From Acidobacteriota bacterium (lineage in GTDB: Bacteria > Acidobacteriota > Terriglobia > Bryobacterales > Bryobacteraceae): a DNA stretch of 64,000 nt. Numbering within the stretch: position 1 is the first letter of the stretch; each line of letters opens with the position of its first letter. Positions 5,105 through 56,715 of this stretch are shown here, one piece after another. Made by a program: the position numbers and the translations under genes. Location of the stretch: positions 74,914-138,913 of the forward strand of contig JACTMJ010000002.1 of the NCBI GenBank assembly GCA_014584705.1, in the 5' to 3' direction. The notes under the pieces were generated by a model. That model was not told the DNA's origin. It was given only the letters and a program-made list of their open reading frames with translations, and did not search any database.

Positions 5105-5581
5105 TCAGGCCACACGCCGGCCACGCTTCGCCGCGGGCTTTGGTGCATTCCTCTCGAGGTGGCCGATGAGGCGCACTTCACTCAGTGCGATGGCAAGTTC
5201 CGCGGCTACCTGTTCTTCGCTGTGCCCTTCCTTGAGCAATCGGACGGCTTCCACCCGGCGATTGATATTCAATCCGGAGGACGCGGGCTTCTGAGGCACA
5301 CAGACCGCGGCGTAGGATTCCACATCCTCAAAACGGCTTTGCAATTCCTCCACTCCGGTGCGTACCTCGGCAAGGGCGATGTCGCTCTCCGACAGCCGCC
5401 GCCTGGCGTCGCTCGCGTTCCGTTCCATTGACTCCTGGGAGACGCGGAGGAGGCATATCGATTCGGCGAGCTCCTCCAGCCGCTGGCGGGATCGCCGGAT
5501 GGAACGCCAACCCAAATGGGCGGAGGTAATCGCGATGGCTGTGGCCGCGAGGGCGAGTGCGAAACTGATTATTGAGAGCAT
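5105..5581 (-). CDS. DUF2802-like flagellar-locus protein (N-terminal TM, coiled coil, C-terminal HTH-like motif)
   Basis: AGGA-type RBS before ATG 5581. TM segment MLSIISFALALAATAIAI, then a heptad-like region. C-terminal RRVEAVRLLKEGHSEEQVAAELAIALSEVRLIGHL resembles the conserved DUF2802 tail found in flagellar/chemotaxis clusters. Confidence 0.6.
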   Translation of the reverse strand: MLSIISFALALAATAIAITSAHLGWRSIRRSRQRLEELAESICLLRVSQESMERNASDARRRLSESDIALAEVRTGVEELQSRFEDVESYAAVCVPQKPASSGLNINRRVEAVRLLKEGHSEEQVAAELAIALSEVRLIGHLERNAPKPAAKRGRRVA

Positions 5582-7329: not shown

Positions 7330-8934
7330 TCAGGCGGCGAAGTTCATGGCCAGCGCTTGTGCGGGCAGAATGCGCTCGCAGATTCGTTCGCGACTCGCCA
7401 GTTCCAGGTCGTCGGGAATCCGCTGCCCGGTGGCAAAGTACGCGAGCGGCTTCCGGCGCCGCCAGGATTCGCTCACCAACTGGCCGATGGAAGTGGTTTC
7501 GTCCAGCTTGGTGTAGACAAGGCTCTGATAGTCGAAAGCCTCGTAGAGATCCGCCAGGCGTTCGAAGTCGGCCGCCTTCATCGACGCCGGCGCCACCATG
7601 TGCGTGATCGTATGATCGAGACTGCGCAAAAACGAGGCCAGATCCTCCGCCGCATCAAAATCCCGCCACCCGAGCCCGGGCGTATCGACAAGAATGATCT
7701 CCTTCGAGGAGTACTCGCGGATCGCTTTCTCAAGAGCGGGCACGGTGGAGAGCGTGTCGAAGCCGACTCCGAGGACCGCCGCGTAGGCGCGGAGCTGTTC
7801 CGAAGCGCCCACCCGGAAGTTGTCCATGGAAATGATTTGCAGCGGGAAACGGCTGATCTCGCTGTAGCGCACCGCCAGTTTCACGAGCGTCGTGGTCTTG
7901 CCCGCGCCCGGAGGTCCCACCAGGGAAATGACAAGCGGGGTCGTGCGTTTGCGGCGCAACCCGGGTTCGGGCATCAGTTCGATGTGCGAAGCGATGGCAT
8001 CCTGGAGCGCGGAGACCAGATGAGCGGCCCCCTCACGCGCTTGCTGCTTCGGCGTCGCCGCGCTCCGTTTGCGCGAGGACCGGGCCGGCCGGTTGCGATC
8101 CGCGCCGTTCCCCCGCCCTCCCGTCTTCTGTTCCGCGACGCCGGAACCGAGCGTTCCGCTCATGGAGGAAAGGATGCGCTCGATCAGCTCCGGATGGAAA
8201 TCCTGTTCAAGCAGCAGATCGTATAGATAGCGCAGATCGTCGCTCGGGAGTTCCTGGCGGTAGTTGGCCGAGCTTACCCGGCGAACCGAGCCCGCCAGCT
8301 GCAGCATCTCTTTGCGAATCGAGAGCATTTGCTCGCGAAGTTTTTCGAACGATTCCATGGCGGAAGCGTCCTTTGCGGCTGCCGGAGGGATAGAGGCCGC
8401 GACGCACCCGTTTCCCATCGGTTGCACCTCGCCCGCTCCGGCGACGGAAGATTCCCGGCCCGCTTCTCCCGGGTTCTCCGCGGCGGGACGCCGCTGGTCC
8501 CCGAATGACGGCGGCGCACTTGTCACGTCATTCTCATCCGCCGCGAGAAAAGAATCTTCCAACCCCCGTGAAGAATGCGGAGCGTGCGGGACGCCTTCCG
8601 AAACGGAGTTCTCCTTCGCAGGGGAGCGCAGCTTGGAGGCCGCGCTCTCCTCGGGACGAGCTTCGGGATTCCGGTGTACCCGGCGCGCGAGATCGTATGG
8701 ATGAGCGGAGGCGGCTTCCGGCGGGCCGGCGGCGGCGGAATCTCGCGCCACGGCGGCTTCCCCTGCATTGGAAGAGTAGGCAAAACTCACGGCGAACTGG
8801 TCCGCTTGCCCTTTCTTCTGGTTCTCTATCCGCTTGGAGTTGAGCAGCATGGCATCGGCTCCAAGCTCGCGGCGGGCCTGTCGAATAGCATCCTGGACGC
8901 TCGCTGCATGAAAAGTTTTTGTGTTCATTCGCAT
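7330..8934 (-). CDS. flhF: flagellar biosynthesis GTPase FlhF (SRP-type), with long low-complexity insertions
   Basis: N-terminal B-domain TFHAASVQDAIRQARRELGADAMLL. G1 motif GPPGAGKTTT, G3 DTPG, G4 TKLD. Located between flhA and fliA. Confidence 0.9.
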   Translation of the reverse strand: MRMNTKTFHAASVQDAIRQARRELGADAMLLNSKRIENQKKGQADQFAVSFAYSSNAGEAAVARDSAAAGPPEAASAHPYDLARRVHRNPEARPEESAASKLRSPAKENSVSEGVPHAPHSSRGLEDSFLAADENDVTSAPPSFGDQRRPAAENPGEAGRESSVAGAGEVQPMGNGCVAASIPPAAAKDASAMESFEKLREQMLSIRKEMLQLAGSVRRVSSANYRQELPSDDLRYLYDLLLEQDFHPELIERILSSMSGTLGSGVAEQKTGGRGNGADRNRPARSSRKRSAATPKQQAREGAAHLVSALQDAIASHIELMPEPGLRRKRTTPLVISLVGPPGAGKTTTLVKLAVRYSEISRFPLQIISMDNFRVGASEQLRAYAAVLGVGFDTLSTVPALEKAIREYSSKEIILVDTPGLGWRDFDAAEDLASFLRSLDHTITHMVAPASMKAADFERLADLYEAFDYQSLVYTKLDETTSIGQLVSESWRRRKPLAYFATGQRIPDDLELASRERICERILPAQALAMNFAA

Positions 8935-9050
8935 CTAATTCCGTCGACCCCCTGTCATCAGTCGCTTGCGATCCATCGGGCGCATCCTTCTTCGCCCATC
9001 GATTCCGGAATGGCCGGAGACTCCTTCGCCGGGTTGCCCGCGCCAATCGC

Positions 9051-9208
9051 ACCGCGCATCCCCTCGCGCCGCGCATCCCCTCGCACCGCGTAACCTTTCG
9101 CACTGGATATCCCCGCGCCGTTTATCCCCCGCGCCGGTTATCCCCGCATCACACGCATAAGCTTCGTCCGTCTCCCCCTCGTATGCCTCCGCCTTGTATG
9201 CCTCCGCC
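9051..9208. repeat. three families of short tandem direct repeats in the flhA-flhF intergenic region
   Basis: Family A: [a/g]ccgcgcatcccctcgc x2 (9051-9084). Family B: [gt][at]tatcccc(c)gc[g/a][c/t]c x3 (9106-9152). Family C: t[ct]gtatgcctccgcc x2 (9179-9208). Confidence 0.85.
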
Positions 9209-9219
9209 CCGGCTTCGGC

Positions 9220-11298
9220 TCATTGAATCGTCCCGAGTGAAACCAGCCGAACTCCGCTGGGGATCTCGTTGTGCGAGAGGACCGCGAGATTCGGGAACGA
9301 GGCCTCGACGATTTGCCGGACAAAAGGACGAACCCCGGCGGAGACGAGCACCGCGGCCGCGCCTTCCCGAGACTCCAGGGAGCGCCGGAACGCTTCGAGT
9401 ACCTTGTTGATCGAATCCATATCCAGGTTCAGTTGGCTCACCAGCTCTCCGTGTTCCACATGCTCCTCGATGGGACGCTCGAGCGAAGGAATCATGAAGT
9501 AGATCGGCAGATCGTTCTGGGAGTTTAGGTAAGGCTGCACCAAAATCCGGCGAATCGACTGGCGAACGAATTCGGTGAGCAGAATGACGTTGCGGGAGTT
9601 CTGCGCACCTTCGCTAAGCGCTTCGAGGATGGAAGCGCCATCGCGAATCGACACCTTCTCTCGCAGCAGGTTCTGGATGACGCGCTGGACGCTCGAAAGC
9701 GGCAGCAGTTTGGGAACCAGATCCTCGACCGCCTTGGGGTGATCTTCCGCCACCCGGTCGAGATAGCGCTTGGCGTCCTGCCGAGAGAACAGCTCGTGCG
9801 CGTGACGCCGGGCAATCTCCGCGAGATGCGTGCCAAGAACGCTGAGCCCGTCCGCCACCGAATAGCCCTTCTTGCGCGCCTCGGCCTTCGCTTCGCTGGG
9901 AATCCAGACGGCCGGCAACCCGAACGCGGGATCTTTCACGGCTCTCCCCTCGATCTCCGGGCAGTCCGCCTGCGACTTGATGGCAAGGTCGCAGCCGGCC
10001 GGAAGCTCCCCGCGGGCGATCTCCGCTCCCTTGAGATACACGACATACTCGCGCGCCTTGAGGCTCAGATTGTCGGTGACCCGCACAGGCGGCAGCACGT
10101 AGCCCAGATCTCCGGCGAGTTGCTTGCGAATCGCCGAGATACGGCGCAGAAGCGGCGAACCGGCGCCGCCTTCCACGTGGCGCACGAGACCAAGCCCGAT
10201 CTCGACCGCCAGGGGATCGAGCTTCAGCAGGCTTTCCACGCGGTCCTTGGCCGGCGCTTTGGCGACCACGGGCGGCTCCGCGAGTTGTTTCTCGGATTCC
10301 TTTTGCAGCCTCCAGCCCGCGTAGCCCACGGCGCCGCCGAGGAGAAGGAAGGGGATCTTGGGGAGACCCGGCAGAATCGCGAGCCCGCCCAAGGCGAGCG
10401 AGGCCAGCATGAGGGGCTGCGCATTGCCAAAGACCTGTTTTCGAAACTCCAGACCCAGGCTCTTCTCCGACGCCGCCCGCGTCACGATGAGGCCCCCGGA
10501 GATGGAGATCATCAGCGCGGGAATGACCGTGACCAGACCGTCTCCGATGGTGAGCACGGTATAAGTTTGAATCGCCCGTGCGAACGGCATATCGTGCTGA
10601 AAAATGCCAATCAGCAGCCCGGCAACGATATTGATGCCGGTAATGAGAATGCTCGCAATGGCATCGCGCTGGGTGAAGCGGGAAGCGCCATCCATGGCGC
10701 CGTAAAACTCCGCTTCGGCGGCCAGAAGCTTGCGGCGGGTTTTGGCCTCGGCTTCATCGATGAGCCCGGCGTTGAGATCGCTGTCGATCGACATCTGCTT
10801 GCCGGGAAGAGCGTCAAGGGTGAAGCGCGCGGTGACTTCGGAGATGCGCACGGCGCCATGATTGATGACCACGTACTGGATGGCGATCAGCACCAGAAAG
10901 ATCACCGTGCCGATGACGTAGTTCCCGCCAACCACGAACTGCCCGAAGGCCTCGATAACATGGCCGGCGGCGGACGTGCCCACATTCCCTTCGAGCAGGA
11001 TCAGGCGCGAGGAAGAGATATTCAGAGCCAGGCGGAACAACGTTAGCAGCAGGAGGGTCGTGGGGAAGACGCTGAACTCCACCGGGCGGAGAATATACAT
11101 CGAAACCAGCAGGACGATCACCGACAGGGTGATGTTGCACACGATGAACAGGTCGAGAACGAGGCCCGGAAGGGGCGTGATCATGGCGACCACGATCACC
11201 AGCACGGCGATGGGAACGCCCATTTCGGCGATCACGCGCGGAGGCGGAACAAACGGCGATTTCGCCTTTGACGCGGGGGCGGCTGGCTGCGCGCTCAA
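9220..11298 (-). CDS. flhA: flagellar type III export protein FlhA
   Basis: 692 aa. GGAGA followed by 5 nt then TTG start. Conserved FHIPEP-type region and FlhA cytoplasmic domain. Confidence 0.97.
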   Translation of the reverse strand: MSAQPAAPASKAKSPFVPPPRVIAEMGVPIAVLVIVVAMITPLPGLVLDLFIVCNITLSVIVLLVSMYILRPVEFSVFPTTLLLLTLFRLALNISSSRLILLEGNVGTSAAGHVIEAFGQFVVGGNYVIGTVIFLVLIAIQYVVINHGAVRISEVTARFTLDALPGKQMSIDSDLNAGLIDEAEAKTRRKLLAAEAEFYGAMDGASRFTQRDAIASILITGINIVAGLLIGIFQHDMPFARAIQTYTVLTIGDGLVTVIPALMISISGGLIVTRAASEKSLGLEFRKQVFGNAQPLMLASLALGGLAILPGLPKIPFLLLGGAVGYAGWRLQKESEKQLAEPPVVAKAPAKDRVESLLKLDPLAVEIGLGLVRHVEGGAGSPLLRRISAIRKQLAGDLGYVLPPVRVTDNLSLKAREYVVYLKGAEIARGELPAGCDLAIKSQADCPEIEGRAVKDPAFGLPAVWIPSEAKAEARKKGYSVADGLSVLGTHLAEIARRHAHELFSRQDAKRYLDRVAEDHPKAVEDLVPKLLPLSSVQRVIQNLLREKVSIRDGASILEALSEGAQNSRNVILLTEFVRQSIRRILVQPYLNSQNDLPIYFMIPSLERPIEEHVEHGELVSQLNLDMDSINKVLEAFRRSLESREGAAAVLVSAGVRPFVRQIVEASFPNLAVLSHNEIPSGVRLVSLGTIQ

Positions 11299-11450: not shown

Positions 11451-12509
11451 TCAATAGCCGGGCCGCTGCCGCTGCAGCACATATGCCAGCACTTCGGCCA
11501 CGGCGCGGTAGAGTTCCGGGGGAATCTCCTGCCCCACTTTGGCGGCGCGGAAGAGGGCCTGGGCAAGCGGCTTGTTCTCCACAACCGCCACGCCGTTCCG
11601 CTCGGCGATCTCGCGAATGCGGAGGGCAAGGAAGTCGAGTCCGCTGGCGACCACCCGCGGCGCGGCCATGGTCCCGTGGTCGTAACGAATCGCGACCGCG
11701 TAGTGGGTGGGATTGACGATCACGGCGGTAGCCGCGGGCACCTCCCGAAGCATGTTCTTCCGCAGCATCTCCCGTTGCAGACGCCGCACGCGGGCGCGGA
11801 TCAGCGGATGGCCCTCGACCTCCTTCATCTCGTCGCGAATTTCCTGGCGGCTCATACGAAGATCCCGGCGATACTTCATTTGGGTGCGGGCGAAGTCAAT
11901 CACGCCCAGCAGCAGAAACAACCCGGACGCGCGCCAGAGGAGGCTCTCAATGGAAGCTCCCGTGATCTCGATGCCGTGGCGCAGCGAGGTGAGAGGAAGC
12001 ATCAGATAGACGCTAATCTCCTCCCTGGCGATGCGATAGACAATCCAGCAGAACAGGGGCAACAGAAACAAAGCCTTGAGGAATTCGGGGCCGTTCTGGG
12101 AGAACATCTGCTGCGCCTTCCTGAAGGGATCCAGTCGCTTGGGATCAAGGTGCAACCGTTTGGCGCTGAGTCCGAATCGCGTCTGAAGCAATTGAAGGAG
12201 CAGGGTAAGCAGGACAATGCCGAGTACGGCCGCCGCCATGCTCCCGCCGAAACGCATGGCGAGATAGATCGCAATGTTGTGGAGCTGCTCCACGCTCAGC
12301 CGGTCGCTGAACGCTTCCGCGACAAAGTAGCGCAGCACGTCGACGAGAGCGTGAACCGCGGCGGGCGTCTGGGTGACGATCAGCGCGAGAAAGGCGACGA
12401 ACTGAAGGCTGCCAAGGAATTCGCGCGAGACGGCAAACTGGCCTTCCTCGCGGGCTTTGTCAATGCGCCGCTGAGTCGGTTTCTCGGTCTTCTGGCTGCG
12501 GTCCGACAT
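11451..12509 (-). CDS. flhB: flagellar type III export protein FlhB
   Basis: 352 aa. N-terminus SDRSQKTEKPTQRRIDKAREEGQ and the NPTH autocleavage motif (VIVNPTHYAVAI). Confidence 0.95.
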   Translation of the reverse strand: MSDRSQKTEKPTQRRIDKAREEGQFAVSREFLGSLQFVAFLALIVTQTPAAVHALVDVLRYFVAEAFSDRLSVEQLHNIAIYLAMRFGGSMAAAVLGIVLLTLLLQLLQTRFGLSAKRLHLDPKRLDPFRKAQQMFSQNGPEFLKALFLLPLFCWIVYRIAREEISVYLMLPLTSLRHGIEITGASIESLLWRASGLFLLLGVIDFARTQMKYRRDLRMSRQEIRDEMKEVEGHPLIRARVRRLQREMLRKNMLREVPAATAVIVNPTHYAVAIRYDHGTMAAPRVVASGLDFLALRIREIAERNGVAVVENKPLAQALFRAAKVGQEIPPELYRAVAEVLAYVLQRQRPGY

Positions 12510-15605: not shown

Positions 15606-16895
15606 TTATCGCTTCAGGTTGATGGTTTCCGCGCTCAGTTCGTCCGCGGTCGTGATCACTCTGGCGTTGGCCTGGTAGCCGCGCTGATACACGATGAGAT
15701 TCGTGAACTCGCGGGCCATATCGGCCGTGGATCCCTCGACGGCGCCCCCGACAATCGTGCCCCGGCCCCCGCTGCCCGCCACGCCAATGGTGGGCTCGGC
15801 TGTCGCGGAACTCACCCGGTAATTGTTATTGCCGACCGCGATGAGCGTATCGGGATTGCCGATTCCGGCCATGGCCAGCTTCCCGATGACGCCCTCGGTG
15901 CCGTCGGAATACTGGGCCACCAGAACGCCTCCATCACCCACCGCCACCCGCGAAAGCTGCGCGGCCCCACGACCGTCCTGGACAAGTCCAGCCACAGCGG
16001 TGGGCTGTGCGAACTGCGTAACGAGAGGCGCCTTAGTGGGAGAAAAGAAATTAATCTTGATCGCATCCGCACCGACAAACGGGTTTGCACCCGAGGCCAC
16101 CGGCGTGATCTCAATGTCGATCGTCGGTATGGGATCGGGCAGCGTGGGCGAGACGCTCGTGCCATCGATCGTCGCCAGGGTGCCATCGGAGTTGAAGGTA
16201 ATGGGGATGGTGGCGGGCGGCGCCGGCTGCGTAACCACGCCAACGGAGGGGTCCAGTTGCTCGACCGAGACGTCCCAGGCATTCGCCGCCGTCTTCTGAT
16301 ATTGCAGCGTGACGATGGTTTCGTTGCCGAGCGAATCGTAGACCCGCAGCGGCACCTTCAGGAGCGAGGTCGAATCATTGAGCGCCGAGGCGTCGAGATT
16401 CATCGTCAGGTACAGATTCCCGGTCGCGGAGGCGGGCCGCAGGCCGCCTTCCGGAACGATGATGTCCCGGATCGCGCCCGTGGTGAGCAGATTGCCGTCC
16501 GTATCCGCCACCCAACCCTGCACCTTCTCTCCGGTGGCGGTCAGCAGCGAACCGTCCGCCGCTTTCTTGAAGTTCCCCGCGCGGGTGTAGAGGGTGCCGC
16601 CATTGGCATCCTTCACCACAAAGAAACCTTCGCCCTGGATGGCCGCGTCGAGCCTGCCGGAACTGGTTTGCACCGAGCCCTGGTTAAACTGCCGGGTGGT
16701 AATCGGGCGACCGATGCCCATGCCAACCTGGGTTTGTCCGCCCGCGCCCAGTGTGCGCGAGAGCAGATCGGAGAAGCTGACGTCGCTCCTCTTGAAGCCG
16801 ATCGTGTTGAGGTTCGCCAGATTGTTGCCCACAACGTCAACCGCGGTGGAGTGTCCGGCCAGCGCGGAAAGGGCCGATGAAAATGCTGTAAACAT
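15606..16895 (-). CDS. flgE: flagellar hook protein FlgE
   Basis: N-terminus MFTAFSSALSALAGHSTAVDVVGNNLANLNTIGFK and C-terminus LIVYQRGYQANARVITTADELSAETINLKR are typical axial-protein termini. Confidence 0.93.
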   Translation of the reverse strand: MFTAFSSALSALAGHSTAVDVVGNNLANLNTIGFKRSDVSFSDLLSRTLGAGGQTQVGMGIGRPITTRQFNQGSVQTSSGRLDAAIQGEGFFVVKDANGGTLYTRAGNFKKAADGSLLTATGEKVQGWVADTDGNLLTTGAIRDIIVPEGGLRPASATGNLYLTMNLDASALNDSTSLLKVPLRVYDSLGNETIVTLQYQKTAANAWDVSVEQLDPSVGVVTQPAPPATIPITFNSDGTLATIDGTSVSPTLPDPIPTIDIEITPVASGANPFVGADAIKINFFSPTKAPLVTQFAQPTAVAGLVQDGRGAAQLSRVAVGDGGVLVAQYSDGTEGVIGKLAMAGIGNPDTLIAVGNNNYRVSSATAEPTIGVAGSGGRGTIVGGAVEGSTADMAREFTNLIVYQRGYQANARVITTADELSAETINLKR

Positions 16896-16963: not shown

Positions 16964-17371
16964 CTAGGCCGCGGAGTCCGCCGTGGATTCGGCGGGTGGA
17001 TTGCTCTTGCCGATCGACTCCAGCTCCTGCCGGATGGAGATCAGTTGTTCCAGCTCGCTGAACTGAGCAAGTTGCGATAGAAACTCCGTCCCGTCGGCCG
17101 GGTTCAACGGATTCTGGTTCTTGATCTGGGCGACGAGCAGGGTCAGAAACGTCTGCTTGTTCGCCAATGCGCCCGCTCCGGAAACGGCGCTCTCGCCGGA
17201 GGCACCCTCCGCGCCGGCCGATTCCCCCGTGCTGCCGGTGTTGGTCCGATCCGCACCGGTTCGATTCGCGTTCGTCCGCTGTGCGGCGTGGACGCCCGAC
17301 CCGGTGTTCCGGGTCTCTCCGGCCGAGGAAGCCGCATCGGACATATAGCGGCTGAGTGGTTGTATCATCAT
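16964..17371 (-). CDS. flgD: flagellar hook assembly/capping protein FlgD (short form, 135 aa)
   Basis: AGGGAGGAA immediately upstream of ATG 17371. Conserved FlgD N-domain KQTFLTLLVAQIKNQNPLNPADGTEFLSQLAQFSELEQ. No Tudor/Ig-like C-terminal domain is encoded before flgE. Confidence 0.85.
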   Translation of the reverse strand: MMIQPLSRYMSDAASSAGETRNTGSGVHAAQRTNANRTGADRTNTGSTGESAGAEGASGESAVSGAGALANKQTFLTLLVAQIKNQNPLNPADGTEFLSQLAQFSELEQLISIRQELESIGKSNPPAESTADSAA

Positions 17372-17393: not shown

Positions 17394-20048
17394 TCAACTG
17401 TTCCCGCGCCCCGAGCCCCGAACCGCACCGCGGGCGTCGTCCCGAAACGCTTCGGCGCGCCCCGCGATCGCCCCGTCGAGGGTCCCGGCAAAGGACGAAG
17501 CACCCCCGCGCGGAGACAAGATCCGCGCGGAGAAGGCCCGCCGATTCTGTTCATCACCGCCCTGTTCCGGCGACCGGCCTCCCGCGAATCCTTCGCCGCC
17601 CGATTGCCCGGGCGACCCGCCTCCCTGCCGGTGGGAAGGAGCGTCGCGCCACTCGCCGTGATCCGTCGACCTCTGGCCGGAGCTTGGACTCCCGGCATCG
17701 AAGCCCGATCGCTCGAGCCGGTGGAGCAATGATGGAATCTCCGCGCGCATCTCGCGCACGAAGCGCTCCGATTGGGATTCGATGCGCACTTCAATATCGG
17801 CTCCCGCACTTCCGGCGGCCCGGTTGCCGCGCTGCAGGAAGCGGAGCCGGACATCCTCGCCTCCGCCCGCCCCCGGCAGATCCACGCGAAGCGACCGGGC
17901 CGCGGGAAGGTCCTTGCCGGCGGCGGGGCCGGGCTGCGGCGGCAACTCAGCCAGGAGCGCTTCGGCAACCTTCGGCAACGTGCCGCCGGACGGAGATTGG
18001 CCGGTAGCGGCGCCGGTTCGGATCGAGCCGTGGGCCGTGCCCCCCGCGCCCGGGTGCCCTGCGGAACCTGCATGGTTCGGGGACGCGGCCACGAGCGATG
18101 CCGGATGAAGCTCCGGATGGGCAGCCATCCCGGCCGCGCCCGCGCGGAAGGGCTTCCGCGGCCACGGCGAGGTTTCCCCGGAATCGCCGGGAGCGCTCTC
18201 TTCCGGGTGCGATGCGGCCGCGGTACCGGACGAAGCGGCGTCAGGAATCGTCATCCGCCTTGCGGCTCCCTGACCGAACCTCACCCCTCCGGCGGATCCG
18301 CTCCCGGACCCGAACCGGGGCGCGGCGAGTACGGCCGATCCCGGAATCGGAAAGTTCGTCTCCACCCCCGCTCGCGCCGGAAGCCGGACGTTGGCGTCGT
18401 TTTCCCCGGCGGCAGGCGAGGCCTCGGATAGAGGGGCCTGCCCGGTTTGTGCAAGGGTTTTCTGTTCAAGAGTGCGGGCGGCGTCCCGCGAGCCCGGAAC
18501 GGCGTGGGTTGCGATGGCTGCCCCCGGCGCCGCCGCGTCGTTAGATTCAGCGGGAATCCCCATGGCGAGCGGTCTTGCGGTGGGCGGGAAAGCGACGGAA
18601 TCGCCGGCCCGCGCGTTCGCCCACCGGGATCCCGCGAGAACCGCCGCTCCATCCGCCGCGTCGCGCATCGCGCCGTCCATCGCGCCGTCCATTGCGCCGT
18701 CCATTGCGCCGCCCATTGCGCCATCCATCGTGTCGCCCGCCGCGCCTCCGCCGCCGAGCCCCGCGTTTTCTCCAGCGGAGGCTACAATCCGGTCAACCGT
18801 AACGCGAATCGTCGGCGGTGCGGACGAGGTCCCGGAGCCAGAGCGGCCGAGATCCTCGGCGAATGCTCCGCGCCCGAAAGCCGCGGTGGCGACATCCGAG
18901 CCCGCCAGGACCGGTTCCGGAGAACCTCCCCGGCCTGCGCGTCCCGCGATACCCGGCGTCGCCTCCGTTCCAATCCGCGTCCACGGCCCGGGAGCGCCCG
19001 GTCCGGACGCGGAACTCAGGTGCGGATCCGCGGTTTGCGGATTCATGCCGCCCCGGGGGGGCGGAACTGCCTCGCCTAGCGCCGCGATGGCTTGGCCGGG
19101 AGAACCCGCGGCGGGAATCGAATGGCCGGCGACGGCCGCGGGCGCGCCCGTCGCCGCTGAATCTCTTACCGGCGCGCCGGAAGCGACCAGCGCATCGGAG
19201 TTCTCCTGGTCGCCGGGCTCCCAAGCCCGCGGGTTTTCTTCCGTTTCCTCCACGAAACCGCCGCCGCCAGCGAACCGGATTGGCCCCTCATCGGGGTTAC
19301 CCGCGGAAGTCGCACCTCCTTGGGTTGTGCGTTCTTGTGCCGGACGAGAGGCGTCCGCCGCAGCCGCGCGGGCATCGCGAGAGGCGTCGGATGCCGGTTG
19401 CGAATCTGAATTCCGGCGAGAGGCGTCCGCCATCTCCGCCCGGGCTGGCCACAATGCGGAACGGTGCGCCGGAGCACCCGATTCGAGGCGCGCCGGTGCA
19501 TTACCGCGAACCAGCGCGCGCGCGCCGACAGAGTTCGCTCGCGGACGCGAATCGGCTAAGCCCGTGCGCTGACGCTCGTTGGCTAAGCCCGTGCGCTGAC
19601 GCTCGTCGGCTAGGCCCGTGCGCTGACGCTCGTCGGCTAGGCCCGTGCGCGAACGCTCGTCGGCTAGGCCCGTGCGCGAACGCTCGTCGGCTAGGCCCGT
19701 GCGCGAACGCGCAACGCCCTCCATCCGGTTTCCCGCGTTTTGCCGCCGGTCCTCGTTCGCCTCACCCAATCTGGAGGACGGCTCGAACCGGGAGTGGCGC
19801 ACCGGATCCTCCGTTGTCTTCCCCGGCGGAGGCAAAGGCACCCGGTCCGCAAACTGCCGGGGTGTCGCGGCCGCTACATCGATGCGAGTCTCCATCCACA
19901 TCGCCAGATAGCCGCCAAACTCGGCGACACCGCGAGCCGATTCTTCCTCCCTGGGCGCTCGTCCGGCTTGCGCGGATGCGCTTGCACGGCTGGAGGATGA
20001 GAGCGAGGCCGCGGAATTCGCGGAGGACCGAATCGATGCAGGAGTCAC
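17394..20048 (-). CDS. fliK: FliK-like flagellar hook-length control protein (884 aa, Ala/Gly/Pro/Arg-rich, internal tandem repeats)
   Basis: GGGAG followed by 7 nt then GTG 20048. Sits directly upstream of flgD-flgE. The C-terminal region (LRVDLPGAGGGEDVRLRFLQRGN...IEVRIESQSERFVREMRAEIPSLLHRLERSGFDAG) resembles the FliK Flg_hook/T3S4 domain. The rest is low complexity. Confidence 0.7.
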   Translation of the reverse strand: MTPASIRSSANSAASLSSSSRASASAQAGRAPREEESARGVAEFGGYLAMWMETRIDVAAATPRQFADRVPLPPPGKTTEDPVRHSRFEPSSRLGEANEDRRQNAGNRMEGVARSRTGLADERSRTGLADERSRTGLADERQRTGLADERQRTGLANERQRTGLADSRPRANSVGARALVRGNAPARLESGAPAHRSALWPARAEMADASRRNSDSQPASDASRDARAAAADASRPAQERTTQGGATSAGNPDEGPIRFAGGGGFVEETEENPRAWEPGDQENSDALVASGAPVRDSAATGAPAAVAGHSIPAAGSPGQAIAALGEAVPPPRGGMNPQTADPHLSSASGPGAPGPWTRIGTEATPGIAGRAGRGGSPEPVLAGSDVATAAFGRGAFAEDLGRSGSGTSSAPPTIRVTVDRIVASAGENAGLGGGGAAGDTMDGAMGGAMDGAMDGAMDGAMRDAADGAAVLAGSRWANARAGDSVAFPPTARPLAMGIPAESNDAAAPGAAIATHAVPGSRDAARTLEQKTLAQTGQAPLSEASPAAGENDANVRLPARAGVETNFPIPGSAVLAAPRFGSGSGSAGGVRFGQGAARRMTIPDAASSGTAAASHPEESAPGDSGETSPWPRKPFRAGAAGMAAHPELHPASLVAASPNHAGSAGHPGAGGTAHGSIRTGAATGQSPSGGTLPKVAEALLAELPPQPGPAAGKDLPAARSLRVDLPGAGGGEDVRLRFLQRGNRAAGSAGADIEVRIESQSERFVREMRAEIPSLLHRLERSGFDAGSPSSGQRSTDHGEWRDAPSHRQGGGSPGQSGGEGFAGGRSPEQGGDEQNRRAFSARILSPRGGASSFAGTLDGAIAGRAEAFRDDARGAVRGSGRGNS
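18669..18728 (-). repeat. five tandem 12-nt coding repeats inside the fliK-like gene (GAMD tetrapeptide)
   Basis: [c/t]gcgcc[g/a][t/c]ccat repeated five times, encoding GAMGGAMDGAMDGAMDGAM. Confidence 0.9.
19554..19715 (-). repeat. six tandem 27-nt coding repeats inside the fliK-like gene (9-aa unit RTGLADER[S/Q])
   Basis: Units start at 19554, 19581, 19608, 19635, 19662 and 19689. Neighbouring units differ by 0-3 nt. Confidence 0.95.
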
Positions 20049-20263
20049 GCGGTGCTCCCTTGCAGTTTCGATACCATTCGCGCGGACACCCCGGATCCCG
20101 CACTTTCCCGCCGCAATCGCAGCCTTCCCGTGAAGAACAGCCGACCATTTTTCGTCACTGGCAAGGTTTCATCGCGCTCCCCCCTCTGCCTCTCCCCGGC
20201 CACGAGGGGACGGAAAGAGGCGCCAGACGGGCGCCGCGCGCTCCCCGGCCCGGCTTCGCCTGT

Positions 20264-20329
20264 ATTGGCCTCTCGCGTGCATTGCCTCTCGCGTGCATTG
20301 CCTCTCGCGTGCATTGACCTCTCGCGTAC
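20264..20329. repeat. four tandem 16/17-nt repeats in the divergent fliK / flgF control region
   Basis: attggcctctcgcgtgc / attgcctctcgcgtgc / attgcctctcgcgtgc / attgacctctcgcgtac. Confidence 0.95.
20265..20281 (+). promoter_or_regulatory. possible sigma-54 (-24/-12) promoter for the flgF arm
   Basis: TTGGCCTCTCGCGTGCA. The GG and GC dinucleotides have the spacing of TGGCACG-N4-TTGCW, about 76 nt before the flgF start. It forms the first unit of a 4x tandem repeat. Several consensus mismatches. Confidence 0.3.
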
Positions 20330-25395: not shown

Positions 25396-25785
25396 ATGAA
25401 GATCCCCGAGTTCCAATCCGACCAGCTTCGGCAGCAAAGCTCCGACGCAGCGGCAACCATCGGTTCGCGCCGGGAAACGGTGCGTGATATTGGAAGCGAC
25501 GCCACCACCTATCCCCATTCCGGAGGAGCCGGGCCGCGGGACGAACGCGTGCCGGCGGTGGATGCGGTGGAGTTTTCGCCGCTATCCCTGACGATTATCG
25601 GCACCGCGAACGCCGATGCGCGAGTGAAGTCGTTAGAGAGCGTATTCCAGCGCGGAGAGTATTCCGCGAACGCCGAGAAGCTTGCCCACACTCTGGTGCA
25701 GACCTTCCTGGTAGAGCACGACAGCCTGGAAGCTCGGCCGGAAACGCCGTCTCCATCCAACTCGGGTAGCTTCCCGAAACAGTAG
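25396..25785 (+). CDS. flgM: anti-sigma-28 factor FlgM
   Basis: 129 aa, last gene of the flgF arm. C-terminus ARVKSLESVFQRGEYSANAEKLAHTLV fits the FlgM sigma-binding helices. Preceded by a sigma-28 promoter. Confidence 0.8.
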   Translation: MKIPEFQSDQLRQQSSDAAATIGSRRETVRDIGSDATTYPHSGGAGPRDERVPAVDAVEFSPLSLTIIGTANADARVKSLESVFQRGEYSANAEKLAHTLVQTFLVEHDSLEARPETPSPSNSGSFPKQ

Positions 25786-54965: not shown

Positions 54966-55347
54966 AGAGACGCCTCCGGCAAGCAATCCCGGCAGCGCAC
55001 CATGACGCCTTCGGTGGACGGCGGGGAAAGCAGGCTCACGATCAGCCGTCGATTTTCGACAGCCGTTTCCTGGCCGGACAGCCTGTTCGTTCTCGGCAAC
55101 CCGTTCGCGTCAGGCAGTGCATTCGTATTTGGTAATCCCTTCAGAGCAGAGCGGCCGCTTCCCGACGGGACGGTAATCGCTGAGAGCCTCGGATCCGCGG
55201 AAGTGGCTCGCGATTGCACGGCAGGCACGCCAGTCTTCGAGGGCAAGGAATTTCGAAGCGGGCGCTCGTTGGCAGCGGGCCGTGAGTTGGCAGCGGATCG
55301 GCGAATTCGCACGACGGGGACCACTTCCCCGCGACGGTACGTTCGCG

Positions 55348-55437
55348 GCCCACCCGTTCACGACCCACACGGGCGCAGCCCACACGGTCGCGGCCCACAT
55401 ATTCACTGCCCACACCGTCGTAGCCCGTCGGCGAACG
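55348..55437. repeat. six degenerate 15-nt tandem units, each starting with GCCCAC (minus strand: ending GTGGGC)
   Basis: GCCCAC-like hexamers occur at 55348, 55363, 55378, 55393, 55408 and 55423, an exact 15-nt phase, inside a region with no convincing ORF. Confidence 0.7.
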
Positions 55438-56595: not shown

Positions 56596-56715
56596 AGCTT
56601 CTTTCCTGTCCGCTGCCCGCTCGTTTTCCCGTCAGTGCGTCCCGCTCGTTCTTCCCGCCTCTTCGTCGCTGGTTCGCATGGTGCATGGCCGCGCGATACC
56701 ATCGCCTCATTGGTT

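Follow-up and report, generated by a model that had tools for sequence, protein, structure and literature searches.

A divergent candidate FliK with a species-specific repeat expansion in a Bryobacterales flagellar cluster

Introduction

Salmonella FliK consists of a ruler N-terminal region, a flexible proline-rich linker, a compact core formed by residues 268-352 and a disordered tail (PMC6972891). In variants of this protein ranging from 363 to 785 amino acids (aa), hook length stays under tight control and extends from 42 to 135 nm, each inserted residue adding 0.2 nm; motility is impaired by hooks that are shorter as well as by hooks that are longer (PMC6126814). A requirement for cleavage of FlhB in the FliK-related switch has also been described (PMC9307174). 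Here, we analyze a 64-kb stretch of DNA (the window) from a member of the order Bryobacterales (Acidobacteriota), in which a minus-strand gene at 17394-20048 encodes a protein of 884 aa directly upstream of flgD-flgE. It is likely, in our assessment, that this gene is the fliK orthologue of a soil bacterium of this order, with a divergent switch domain and a species-specific repeat expansion in its spacer.

The window protein resembles Salmonella FliK in its layout, with a conserved N-terminus, a long low-complexity body, a core at aa 718-786 and a low-complexity tail. Like fliK of Salmonella and E. coli, the gene belongs to a flagellar export operon that also encodes an FlhB with the NPTH motif. 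Differences concern size, sequence and position. The protein has 884 aa as compared to 405 aa in Salmonella and 375 aa in E. coli, and about 717 residues precede its core as compared to 267 in Salmonella FliK. Its C-terminal domain is too divergent from the Salmonella and E. coli proteins for recognition by Pfam and NCBIfam and shows, in the subgroup of the window, an insertion of eight residues. Whereas E. coli fliK sits after fliJ, the window gene sits before flgD-flgE and, unlike fliK of Salmonella and E. coli, bears tandem DNA repeats.

A parallel for the repeats is provided by YscP, the needle-length ruler of the Yersinia injectisome and a member of the T3S4 (type III secretion substrate-specificity switch) family. 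As summarized in PMC3469391 (citing Wagner et al. 2009), YscP of Yersinia enterocolitica varies between 452 and 538 aa through repeats of 14, 25 and 46 aa, and the length of the needle is a linear function of YscP size. To the extent covered by that summary, both proteins are type III secretion rulers whose body carries tandem repeats in lineage-variable number, with length changing in frame. They differ in that the window protein is flagellar, has a unit of 9 aa and varies in repeat count only between species-level relatives. A literature search on tandem repeats in FliK found nothing relevant. Variable in-frame ruler repeats are, according to the same summary, already documented for YscP, and the feature of the window gene thus has precedent, to which the original prediction did not refer.

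Homology of the C-terminal domain

Three lines of evidence carry the FliK assignment: homology through intermediate family members, the slot in the operon and the layout of the protein. In word-indexed protein searches, the full protein and the family profile each gave one match, so that an exhaustive search was needed to reveal the family. A phmmer search of the last 199 residues against 1.84 billion cluster representatives retrieved 19 proteins, most of the full-length ones 730-850 aa long. The only family member outside the species of the window that could be placed taxonomically belongs to the Bryobacterales. The family shares the motif ARSLRVDLPG..GE.[IL]RLRFLQRG...IDVRI.S.SE..VRE.RAEIP.LL.RLE.AGF, located about 150-180 residues from the C-terminus. 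In the window protein, this region forms a divergent core resembling Flg_hook, the type III secretion substrate-specificity switch (T3S4) domain, at aa 718-786 (17691-17897, minus strand; RSLRVDLPG...RLRFLQRG...IEVRIESQSERFVREMRAEIPSLLHRLERSGFDAG). It is followed by a C-terminal tail motif, SSFAGTLDGAIAGRAEAFR, at aa 851-869 (17442-17498, minus strand), which the family alignment shows to be conserved within an otherwise low-complexity tail. By its position and composition this tail may correspond to the disordered C-terminal tail of FliK (PMC6972891).

The original prediction had described the C-terminal domain as a recognizable FliK-type domain and had proposed a profile hidden Markov model (HMM) search with Pfam Flg_hook as a check. 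The domain is less readily recognized than that. When excised, it matches Flg_hook (PF02120) over model positions 36-82 of 85 with 12.5-13.8 bits (E 0.05-0.13), which is below the curated cut-off of 29.8 bits; no other Pfam family was matched. Relatives bridge this distance. Flg_hook was found at E <= 1 in 13 of the 16 family domains, always on the same segment, while other families gave only scattered matches to single members. The highest scores were those of P0014 (29.4 bits, E 7e-07), P0018 (27.2 bits), P0020 (24.7 bits) and P0016 (23.2 bits), with E-values from 7e-07 to 6e-05 for these four proteins on the aligned segment, and the protein collection lists a precomputed PF02120 assignment for P0014. 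The window domain in turn reaches the same four proteins by phmmer at E 8e-05 to 8e-04. The eight-residue insertion mentioned above lies between predicted strands 2 and 3 and is present in the subgroup of the window but absent from P0014, P0016, P0018 and P0020. Through these transitive links, which are significant by E-value, the domain is homologous to Flg_hook as judged by sequence comparison. In addition, an hhalign comparison of the family profile with E. coli FliK alone placed the strand-helix segment on residues 281-317 at a marginal E of 0.046; these residues lie inside the region that matches the Salmonella core domain. AlphaFold2 supplied with the 16-sequence alignment predicted a core of three strands and one helix with a predicted local distance difference test score (pLDDT) of 72-82 and a mean of 63.8; the model from the single sequence was poor (pLDDT 49).

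Several results weigh against FliK and would favor a different reading, namely that the protein is another disordered flagellar accessory protein whose likeness to Flg_hook is not strong enough to sustain the function. Direct tests on the window sequence itself were all below threshold or negative: the whole protein gave nothing at E <= 0.1 against Pfam and NCBIfam, and the excised domain scored below the Flg_hook cut-off. No relative's domain attained this cut-off in our scans, and NCBIfam returned no FliK model for any of the 16 family domains. Searches of PDB sequences with the window domain, the family profile and P0014 gave no matches or matches at chance level only. A Foldseek search of the moderate-quality model (mean pLDDT 63.8) against PDB listed no match with E < 1, and 2RRL, the structure of the FliK C-terminal core, was not among the structures listed; this comparison of folds is uninformative rather than negative. 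NCBI names the conspecific orthologue 'hypothetical protein'. Furthermore, our view of the genome is the 64-kb window, and any second fliK elsewhere would lie outside it. However, Flg_hook is the only Pfam family with matches in two or more of the 16 domains, and these fall on one and the same segment. Relatives reach Flg_hook at E 7e-07 and are tied to the window protein by phmmer significance in a search of 1.8 billion proteins. The position before flgD-flgE and the architecture also fit FliK. We therefore regard a non-FliK accessory protein as quite improbable and consider it probable, on the evidence of sequence and gene order, that the gene is FliK, a divergent member missed by current annotation models. 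The identity put forward in the original prediction is thus supported by family links, operon slot and architecture, and not by the HMM search that had been proposed for it.

Reading frame, gene start and evolutionary rate

The 884-aa open reading frame (ORF) on the minus strand begins with GTG and stands upstream of flgD and flgE, as had been predicted. A Shine-Dalgarno-like AAGGGAG at 20055-20061 (minus strand), 6 nucleotides (nt) upstream of the GTG, was read from the sequence and is kept in the relatives L001, L002 and L005. L002 (JBDIBK010000074) and L005 (GCA_023384735.1) are Bryobacterales metagenome-assembled genomes and the closest genome matches. The composition of the protein (A 19%, G 14%, R 10%, S 10%, P 8%) bears out the predicted low-complexity body rich in Ala, Gly, Pro and Arg. 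The prediction had also put the protein at roughly twice the size of enterobacterial FliK. This holds against the 375 aa of E. coli, but the long body is the norm of the family (730-850 aa) and not a peculiarity of this genome.

The guanine-plus-cytosine (GC) content by codon position is 0.74/0.67/0.73 in the fliK-like gene as compared to approximately 0.62/0.48/0.78 in the neighboring flg genes. As GC is high at all three positions, codon statistics alone cannot confirm the frame. Comparison confirms the frame: the full-length orthologues P0001, P0003 and P0021 align colinearly along their whole length and have the same termini, every indel is in frame, and the ratio of nonsynonymous to synonymous substitutions (dN/dS) points the same way. 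Two ORFs of 393 and 499 aa on the plus strand were rejected as real genes because conservation, in-frame indels and dN/dS back the minus-strand frame; shadow ORFs of this kind are usual in GC-rich DNA. An exact-protein look-up found no record identical to the 884-aa protein.

The N-terminus MTPASIRSSANSAASLSSS is common to the three orthologues, one of which is an NCBI-called protein. The conserved N-terminal region (aa 1-52; 19893-20048, minus strand) includes EFGGYLAMWM, a motif kept in most aligned family members. F-x-x-x-hydrophobic is the gate-recognition motif of early flagellar export substrates. FGGYL at aa 44-48 (19905-19919) fits this pattern, and FlgD has FLTLL. By analogy, the region around FGGYL is a putative export signal or gate-recognition region.

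The fliK-like gene evolves fast. Its dN/dS is 0.55 at 63-68% aa identity and a dS of approximately 0.37-0.44, as compared to a dN/dS of 0.063 and 96% aa identity for FlgE at similar dS. Within the fliK-like gene, the body has a dN/dS of 0.5-0.9, and the core of the C-terminal switch domain one of 0.18. This pattern of rates is what would be expected of a spacer joined to a functional domain. Two motifs in the body are largely kept: P[ST]IRV[TS]VD at aa 412-419 (18792-18815), which is retained in aligned family members and is similar to SLRVDLPG, the first strand of the C-terminal domain, and RRMTIP at aa 597-602 (18243-18260), although the surrounding body evolves fast.

Operon context

On the minus strand, the genes follow in the order fliK-like, flgD, flgE, fliN-like, fliP, fliR, flhB, flhA, flhF, a gene for a FliA-like sigma factor and fliN/fliY-like. 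The same gene order around the fliK-like gene was found in L001, L002 and the Logan contig L003. The start of flgD lies about 22 nt past the stop of the fliK-like gene. The flgD gene for the hook cap (16964-17371, minus strand; 134-135 aa; Pfam FlgD, E 6.7e-20) has orthologues that start with MIQPLS. The flgE gene for the hook protein (15606-16895, minus strand; 429 aa from MFTAFSS) matches NCBIfam FlgE at E 4.9e-90 and its product is 96% identical in aa to FlgE of L002. The export-gate partner flhB (11451-12509, minus strand; Pfam Bac_export_2, E 2e-101) encodes the NPTH autocleavage motif in the translation VIVNPTHYAV.

In the Bacillus-type fla/che operon, fliK occupies the slot before flgD-flgE. 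The window shares this arrangement with the fla/che operons of Bacillus subtilis, Helicobacter and spirochaetes, in which, as here, genes for the switch and the export gate, flhF and a FliA-type sigma factor come next. Unlike these operons, the window has flgF-flgG-flgA-flgH-flgI divergently oriented upstream, instead of fliE through fliJ, and its FlgD is only 134-135 aa long. The window FlgD matches the N-terminal Pfam FlgD domain only, and the C-terminal domain of enterobacterial FlgD is apparently absent. Its first 70 residues are of low complexity and fast-evolving (86% aa identity to L001).

A species-specific expansion of the 27-nt array

As predicted, the body contains six in-frame 27-nt units in the RTGLADER[S/Q] register, which were recovered by Tandem Repeats Finder and by a table of the units. 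Tandem Repeats Finder reported a period of 27 nt, 6.3 copies and 93% matches at 19540-19710; the score of 258 is the highest among tandem arrays in the window. The units cover aa 116-169 and read RTGLADERS twice, RTGLADERQ twice, RTGLANERQ and RTGLADSRP, the last of which is the ancestral unit according to the orthologues. Two details of the prediction needed correction. The array spans 19542-19703 (minus strand) and not 19554-19715, a shift of 12 nt, and successive units differ by 0, 2, 0, 2 and 5 nt rather than by 0-3 nt.

Comparison with relatives outlines the history of the array. L005 is 98.4% identical in nt to the window over 8.2 kb and L003 97.9% identical over 4.3 kb, and both are conspecific with the window by these values; L001 and L002 are approximately 84% identical to it across the fliK-like gene. 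L001 has a single unit at the array site, RTGIADSRP, orthologous to the sixth, most divergent (3'-most) unit of the window, and L002 has two to three degenerate units. No strong tandem array was found in the fliK-like protein of other family members, in which the array segment is a frequent site of indels in the alignment. From the single unit in L001, the degenerate units in L002 and the lack of an array in other members it follows that the five upstream units are a species-specific expansion. Judged by these alignments, the array is confirmed as a recent, species-specific in-frame expansion in which a single ancestral unit grew to six and 45 residues were added; the predicted recent origin is thereby upheld. 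P0007 (811 aa) carries another short charged repeat (ERRETERRETVRSETERTE) at residues ~118-140, at about the alignment position of the window array, which suggests that indels and repeats tend to arise in this segment throughout the family.

The array most likely would have arisen by replication slippage or unequal recombination. It would persist because the ruler region is a weakly constrained spacer, in which the products of slippage are tolerated.

Within the species, the units are in flux. The L005 array also has six units but in another order and composition: with Z as the ancestral terminal unit, the window reads A A B B C Z and L005 reads B* C C' C A Z. Compared by position, the two arrays differ by 16 mismatches in 162 nt as compared to a background of 1.5% (P ~6e-9), whereas identity in the array flanks is 96.8-98.6%. 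Aligned at the level of units, the two arrays are best matched with several whole-unit gaps that cancel out. Such sharp differences in order and composition between conspecifics indicate fast turnover at the level of units, which are apparently gained, lost or converted quickly within the species.

It is tempting to propose that the array is a length-tuning device, in which frequent slippage produces strains or subpopulations with different hook lengths under selection. Units that are multiples of three preserve the frame, copy number among relatives is six, about two to three, and one, and the conspecific arrays, so dissimilar by position, are best related by gain and loss of whole units. For Y. 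enterocolitica, the summary in PMC3469391 likewise has YscP repeat number varying by strain and needle length tracking YscP size. However, the only conspecific assembly across the array, L005, has the same count of six, and the adjacent 16-nt array described below also has the same count in L005. The other conspecific, L003, starts inside a 12-nt array of the same gene, so that the 27-nt array lies outside it; the 3' portion of the 12-nt array that it does cover aligns without a gap. Other family members lack such a 27-nt array, and of the approximately 700 residues that precede the switch domain only about 6% come from the five units. No within-species difference in copy number was seen in the one comparison, window versus L005, and scans of Joint Genome Institute (JGI) metagenomes for relatives and for the exact array-flank junction found nothing and thus no extra conspecific alleles. 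The suggestion in the original prediction that copy-number variation could tune hook length between strains or within a population is not borne out by these data, and we consider a tuning device unlikely.

The same pair of arrays invites the opposite proposal that recombination within the array shuffles units fast while selection on the length of the ruler, and so of the hook, holds the count at six. Two assemblies that are 98.4% identical have arrays of equal length and dissimilar unit order, with whole-unit gaps that cancel, and motility of Salmonella suffers from shorter as well as longer hooks (PMC6126814). Yet these are two genomes only, whose equal counts may be coincidence, and gene conversion without change of length could yield part of the pattern. 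Both assemblies may also be short-read assemblies, although the longest exact internal repeats are only 58 nt in the window array and 47 nt in the L005 array. Stabilization of the count is, in our view, likewise an unlikely explanation. If true, a constant count despite shuffling would be a natural signature of stabilizing selection on the length of the FliK ruler, and so of the hook, and would turn this lineage of Bryobacterales into a test of the ruler model under field conditions.

It is highly improbable that the repeat count or the unit order is an artefact of assembly. The relatives are indeed metagenome assemblies, and the L003 contig begins within the 12-nt array. However, with a longest exact repeat of 58 nt, reads of at least 100 nt or a k-mer size of at least 60 resolve the copy number, and misassembly is unlikely given that the longest exact repeats are this short. 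The independent conspecific assembly L005 also gives six units, and the distinct unit variants anchor their order. We thus retain the reading of a species-specific expansion in the spacer of a divergent FliK.

Consequences for hook length

If the protein acts as FliK does, it would be a secreted, largely disordered molecular ruler. Export of its N-terminal part would take place through the growing hook, and at sufficient hook length its C-terminal domain would flip FlhB from hook-type to filament-type export. We infer secretion, the FlhB switch and an effect on hook length for this protein by analogy with the enterobacterial system. Engineered Salmonella FliK of up to 785 aa is still secreted and still switches, with hooks of up to 135 nm (PMC6126814), and rulers of such size can thus function. 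Applied to the array, the Salmonella relation would make the hook about 9 nm longer for 45 added residues. The bounds would be about 7 nm if the residues form an alpha-helix and about 17 nm if they are fully extended, a fully extended chain measuring 0.37 nm per residue (PMC6972891). The inserts in the engineered proteins were alpha-helical YscP segments in a known FliK (PMC6126814), in contrast to the natural, Ala/Gly/Pro/Arg-rich long body of the window protein. As the conformation of this natural body may differ from that of helical inserts, the value of 0.2 nm per residue may not transfer. The length of approximately 150 nm obtained by placing the whole 884 aa on the Salmonella line is probably not meaningful for a body of such conformation.

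The periods of the two intragenic arrays, 27 and 12 nt, are divisible by three, so that changes in copy number alter length and not frame; a phase-variable (contingency) locus was considered and rejected on these grounds. There is nothing to indicate an active tuning or phase-variation mechanism. The locus does not represent a new mechanism, and the gain is a modest one in annotation. Long proteins of a family that Pfam and NCBIfam overlook, and whose only taxonomically placed members in this analysis are Bryobacterales, become readable as the missing fliK of the flagellar clusters concerned. On the FliK reading, the T3S4 switch domain would also span a wider range of sequences than previously known. 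The repeat indicates that ruler length can change naturally in discrete in-frame steps, as described for YscP in the source cited above, and the 45-residue difference from sister lineages would offer a natural test of the rule of 0.2 nm per residue outside enterobacteria if hooks of this lineage could be measured. Current understanding is not overturned.

Further arrays, upstream elements and cluster edges

The second in-frame array of the fliK-like gene consists of approximately five to seven 12-nt units encoding DGAM/GGAM (18645-18746, minus strand; Tandem Repeats Finder). Orthologues are 4-8 aa shorter at this site, P0001 by eight residues and P0003 by four, and L003, in the 3' part that it covers, aligns to the window without gaps. 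The L003 contig begins within this array, as contigs typically do where an assembly breaks at a repeat.

Between the start of the fliK-like gene and the divergent start of flgF (20357), a 16-nt unit (CTCTCGCGTGCATTGC) is repeated three to four times at 20256-20327, 30-100 nt upstream of flgF. The 16-nt motif is present as a single copy in L001 and L002, and its copy number in L005 equals that of the window. With its GG-N10-GC spacing, the first copy (TGGCC...TGCA) resembles a sigma-54 promoter. Closer to the fliK-like gene, at ~20140-20190, a block of about 40 nt (GCGCGATGAAACCTTGCCAGTGACGAAAAATGGTCGGC, on the strand of the gene) is nearly invariant between the window and L001, L002 and L005, in contrast to the diverging intergenic DNA around it. 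This block is a candidate promoter or regulatory element of the operon. A scan for promoters and terminators gave nothing above shuffled expectation.

Three adjacent arrays with units of 17, 16 and 15 nt and approximately 2.5 copies each lie at 9047-9208 in the 285-nt gap between flhA (9220-11298) and flhF (7330-8934), beyond the stretches retrieved for the relatives. Outside the flagellar cluster, tandem arrays are located at 55339-55426 (15/45 nt) and 56616-56667 (26 nt). A genome-wide tendency to tandem expansion was considered as a candidate explanation and not adopted; there are about eight arrays in the 64 kb, three of them in or beside the fliK-like gene.

At the edges of the cluster, two ORFs of 158 aa (5105-5581, minus strand) and 129 aa (25396-25785, plus strand) have normal GC by codon position and no Pfam match, and could be unrecognized flagellar accessory genes.

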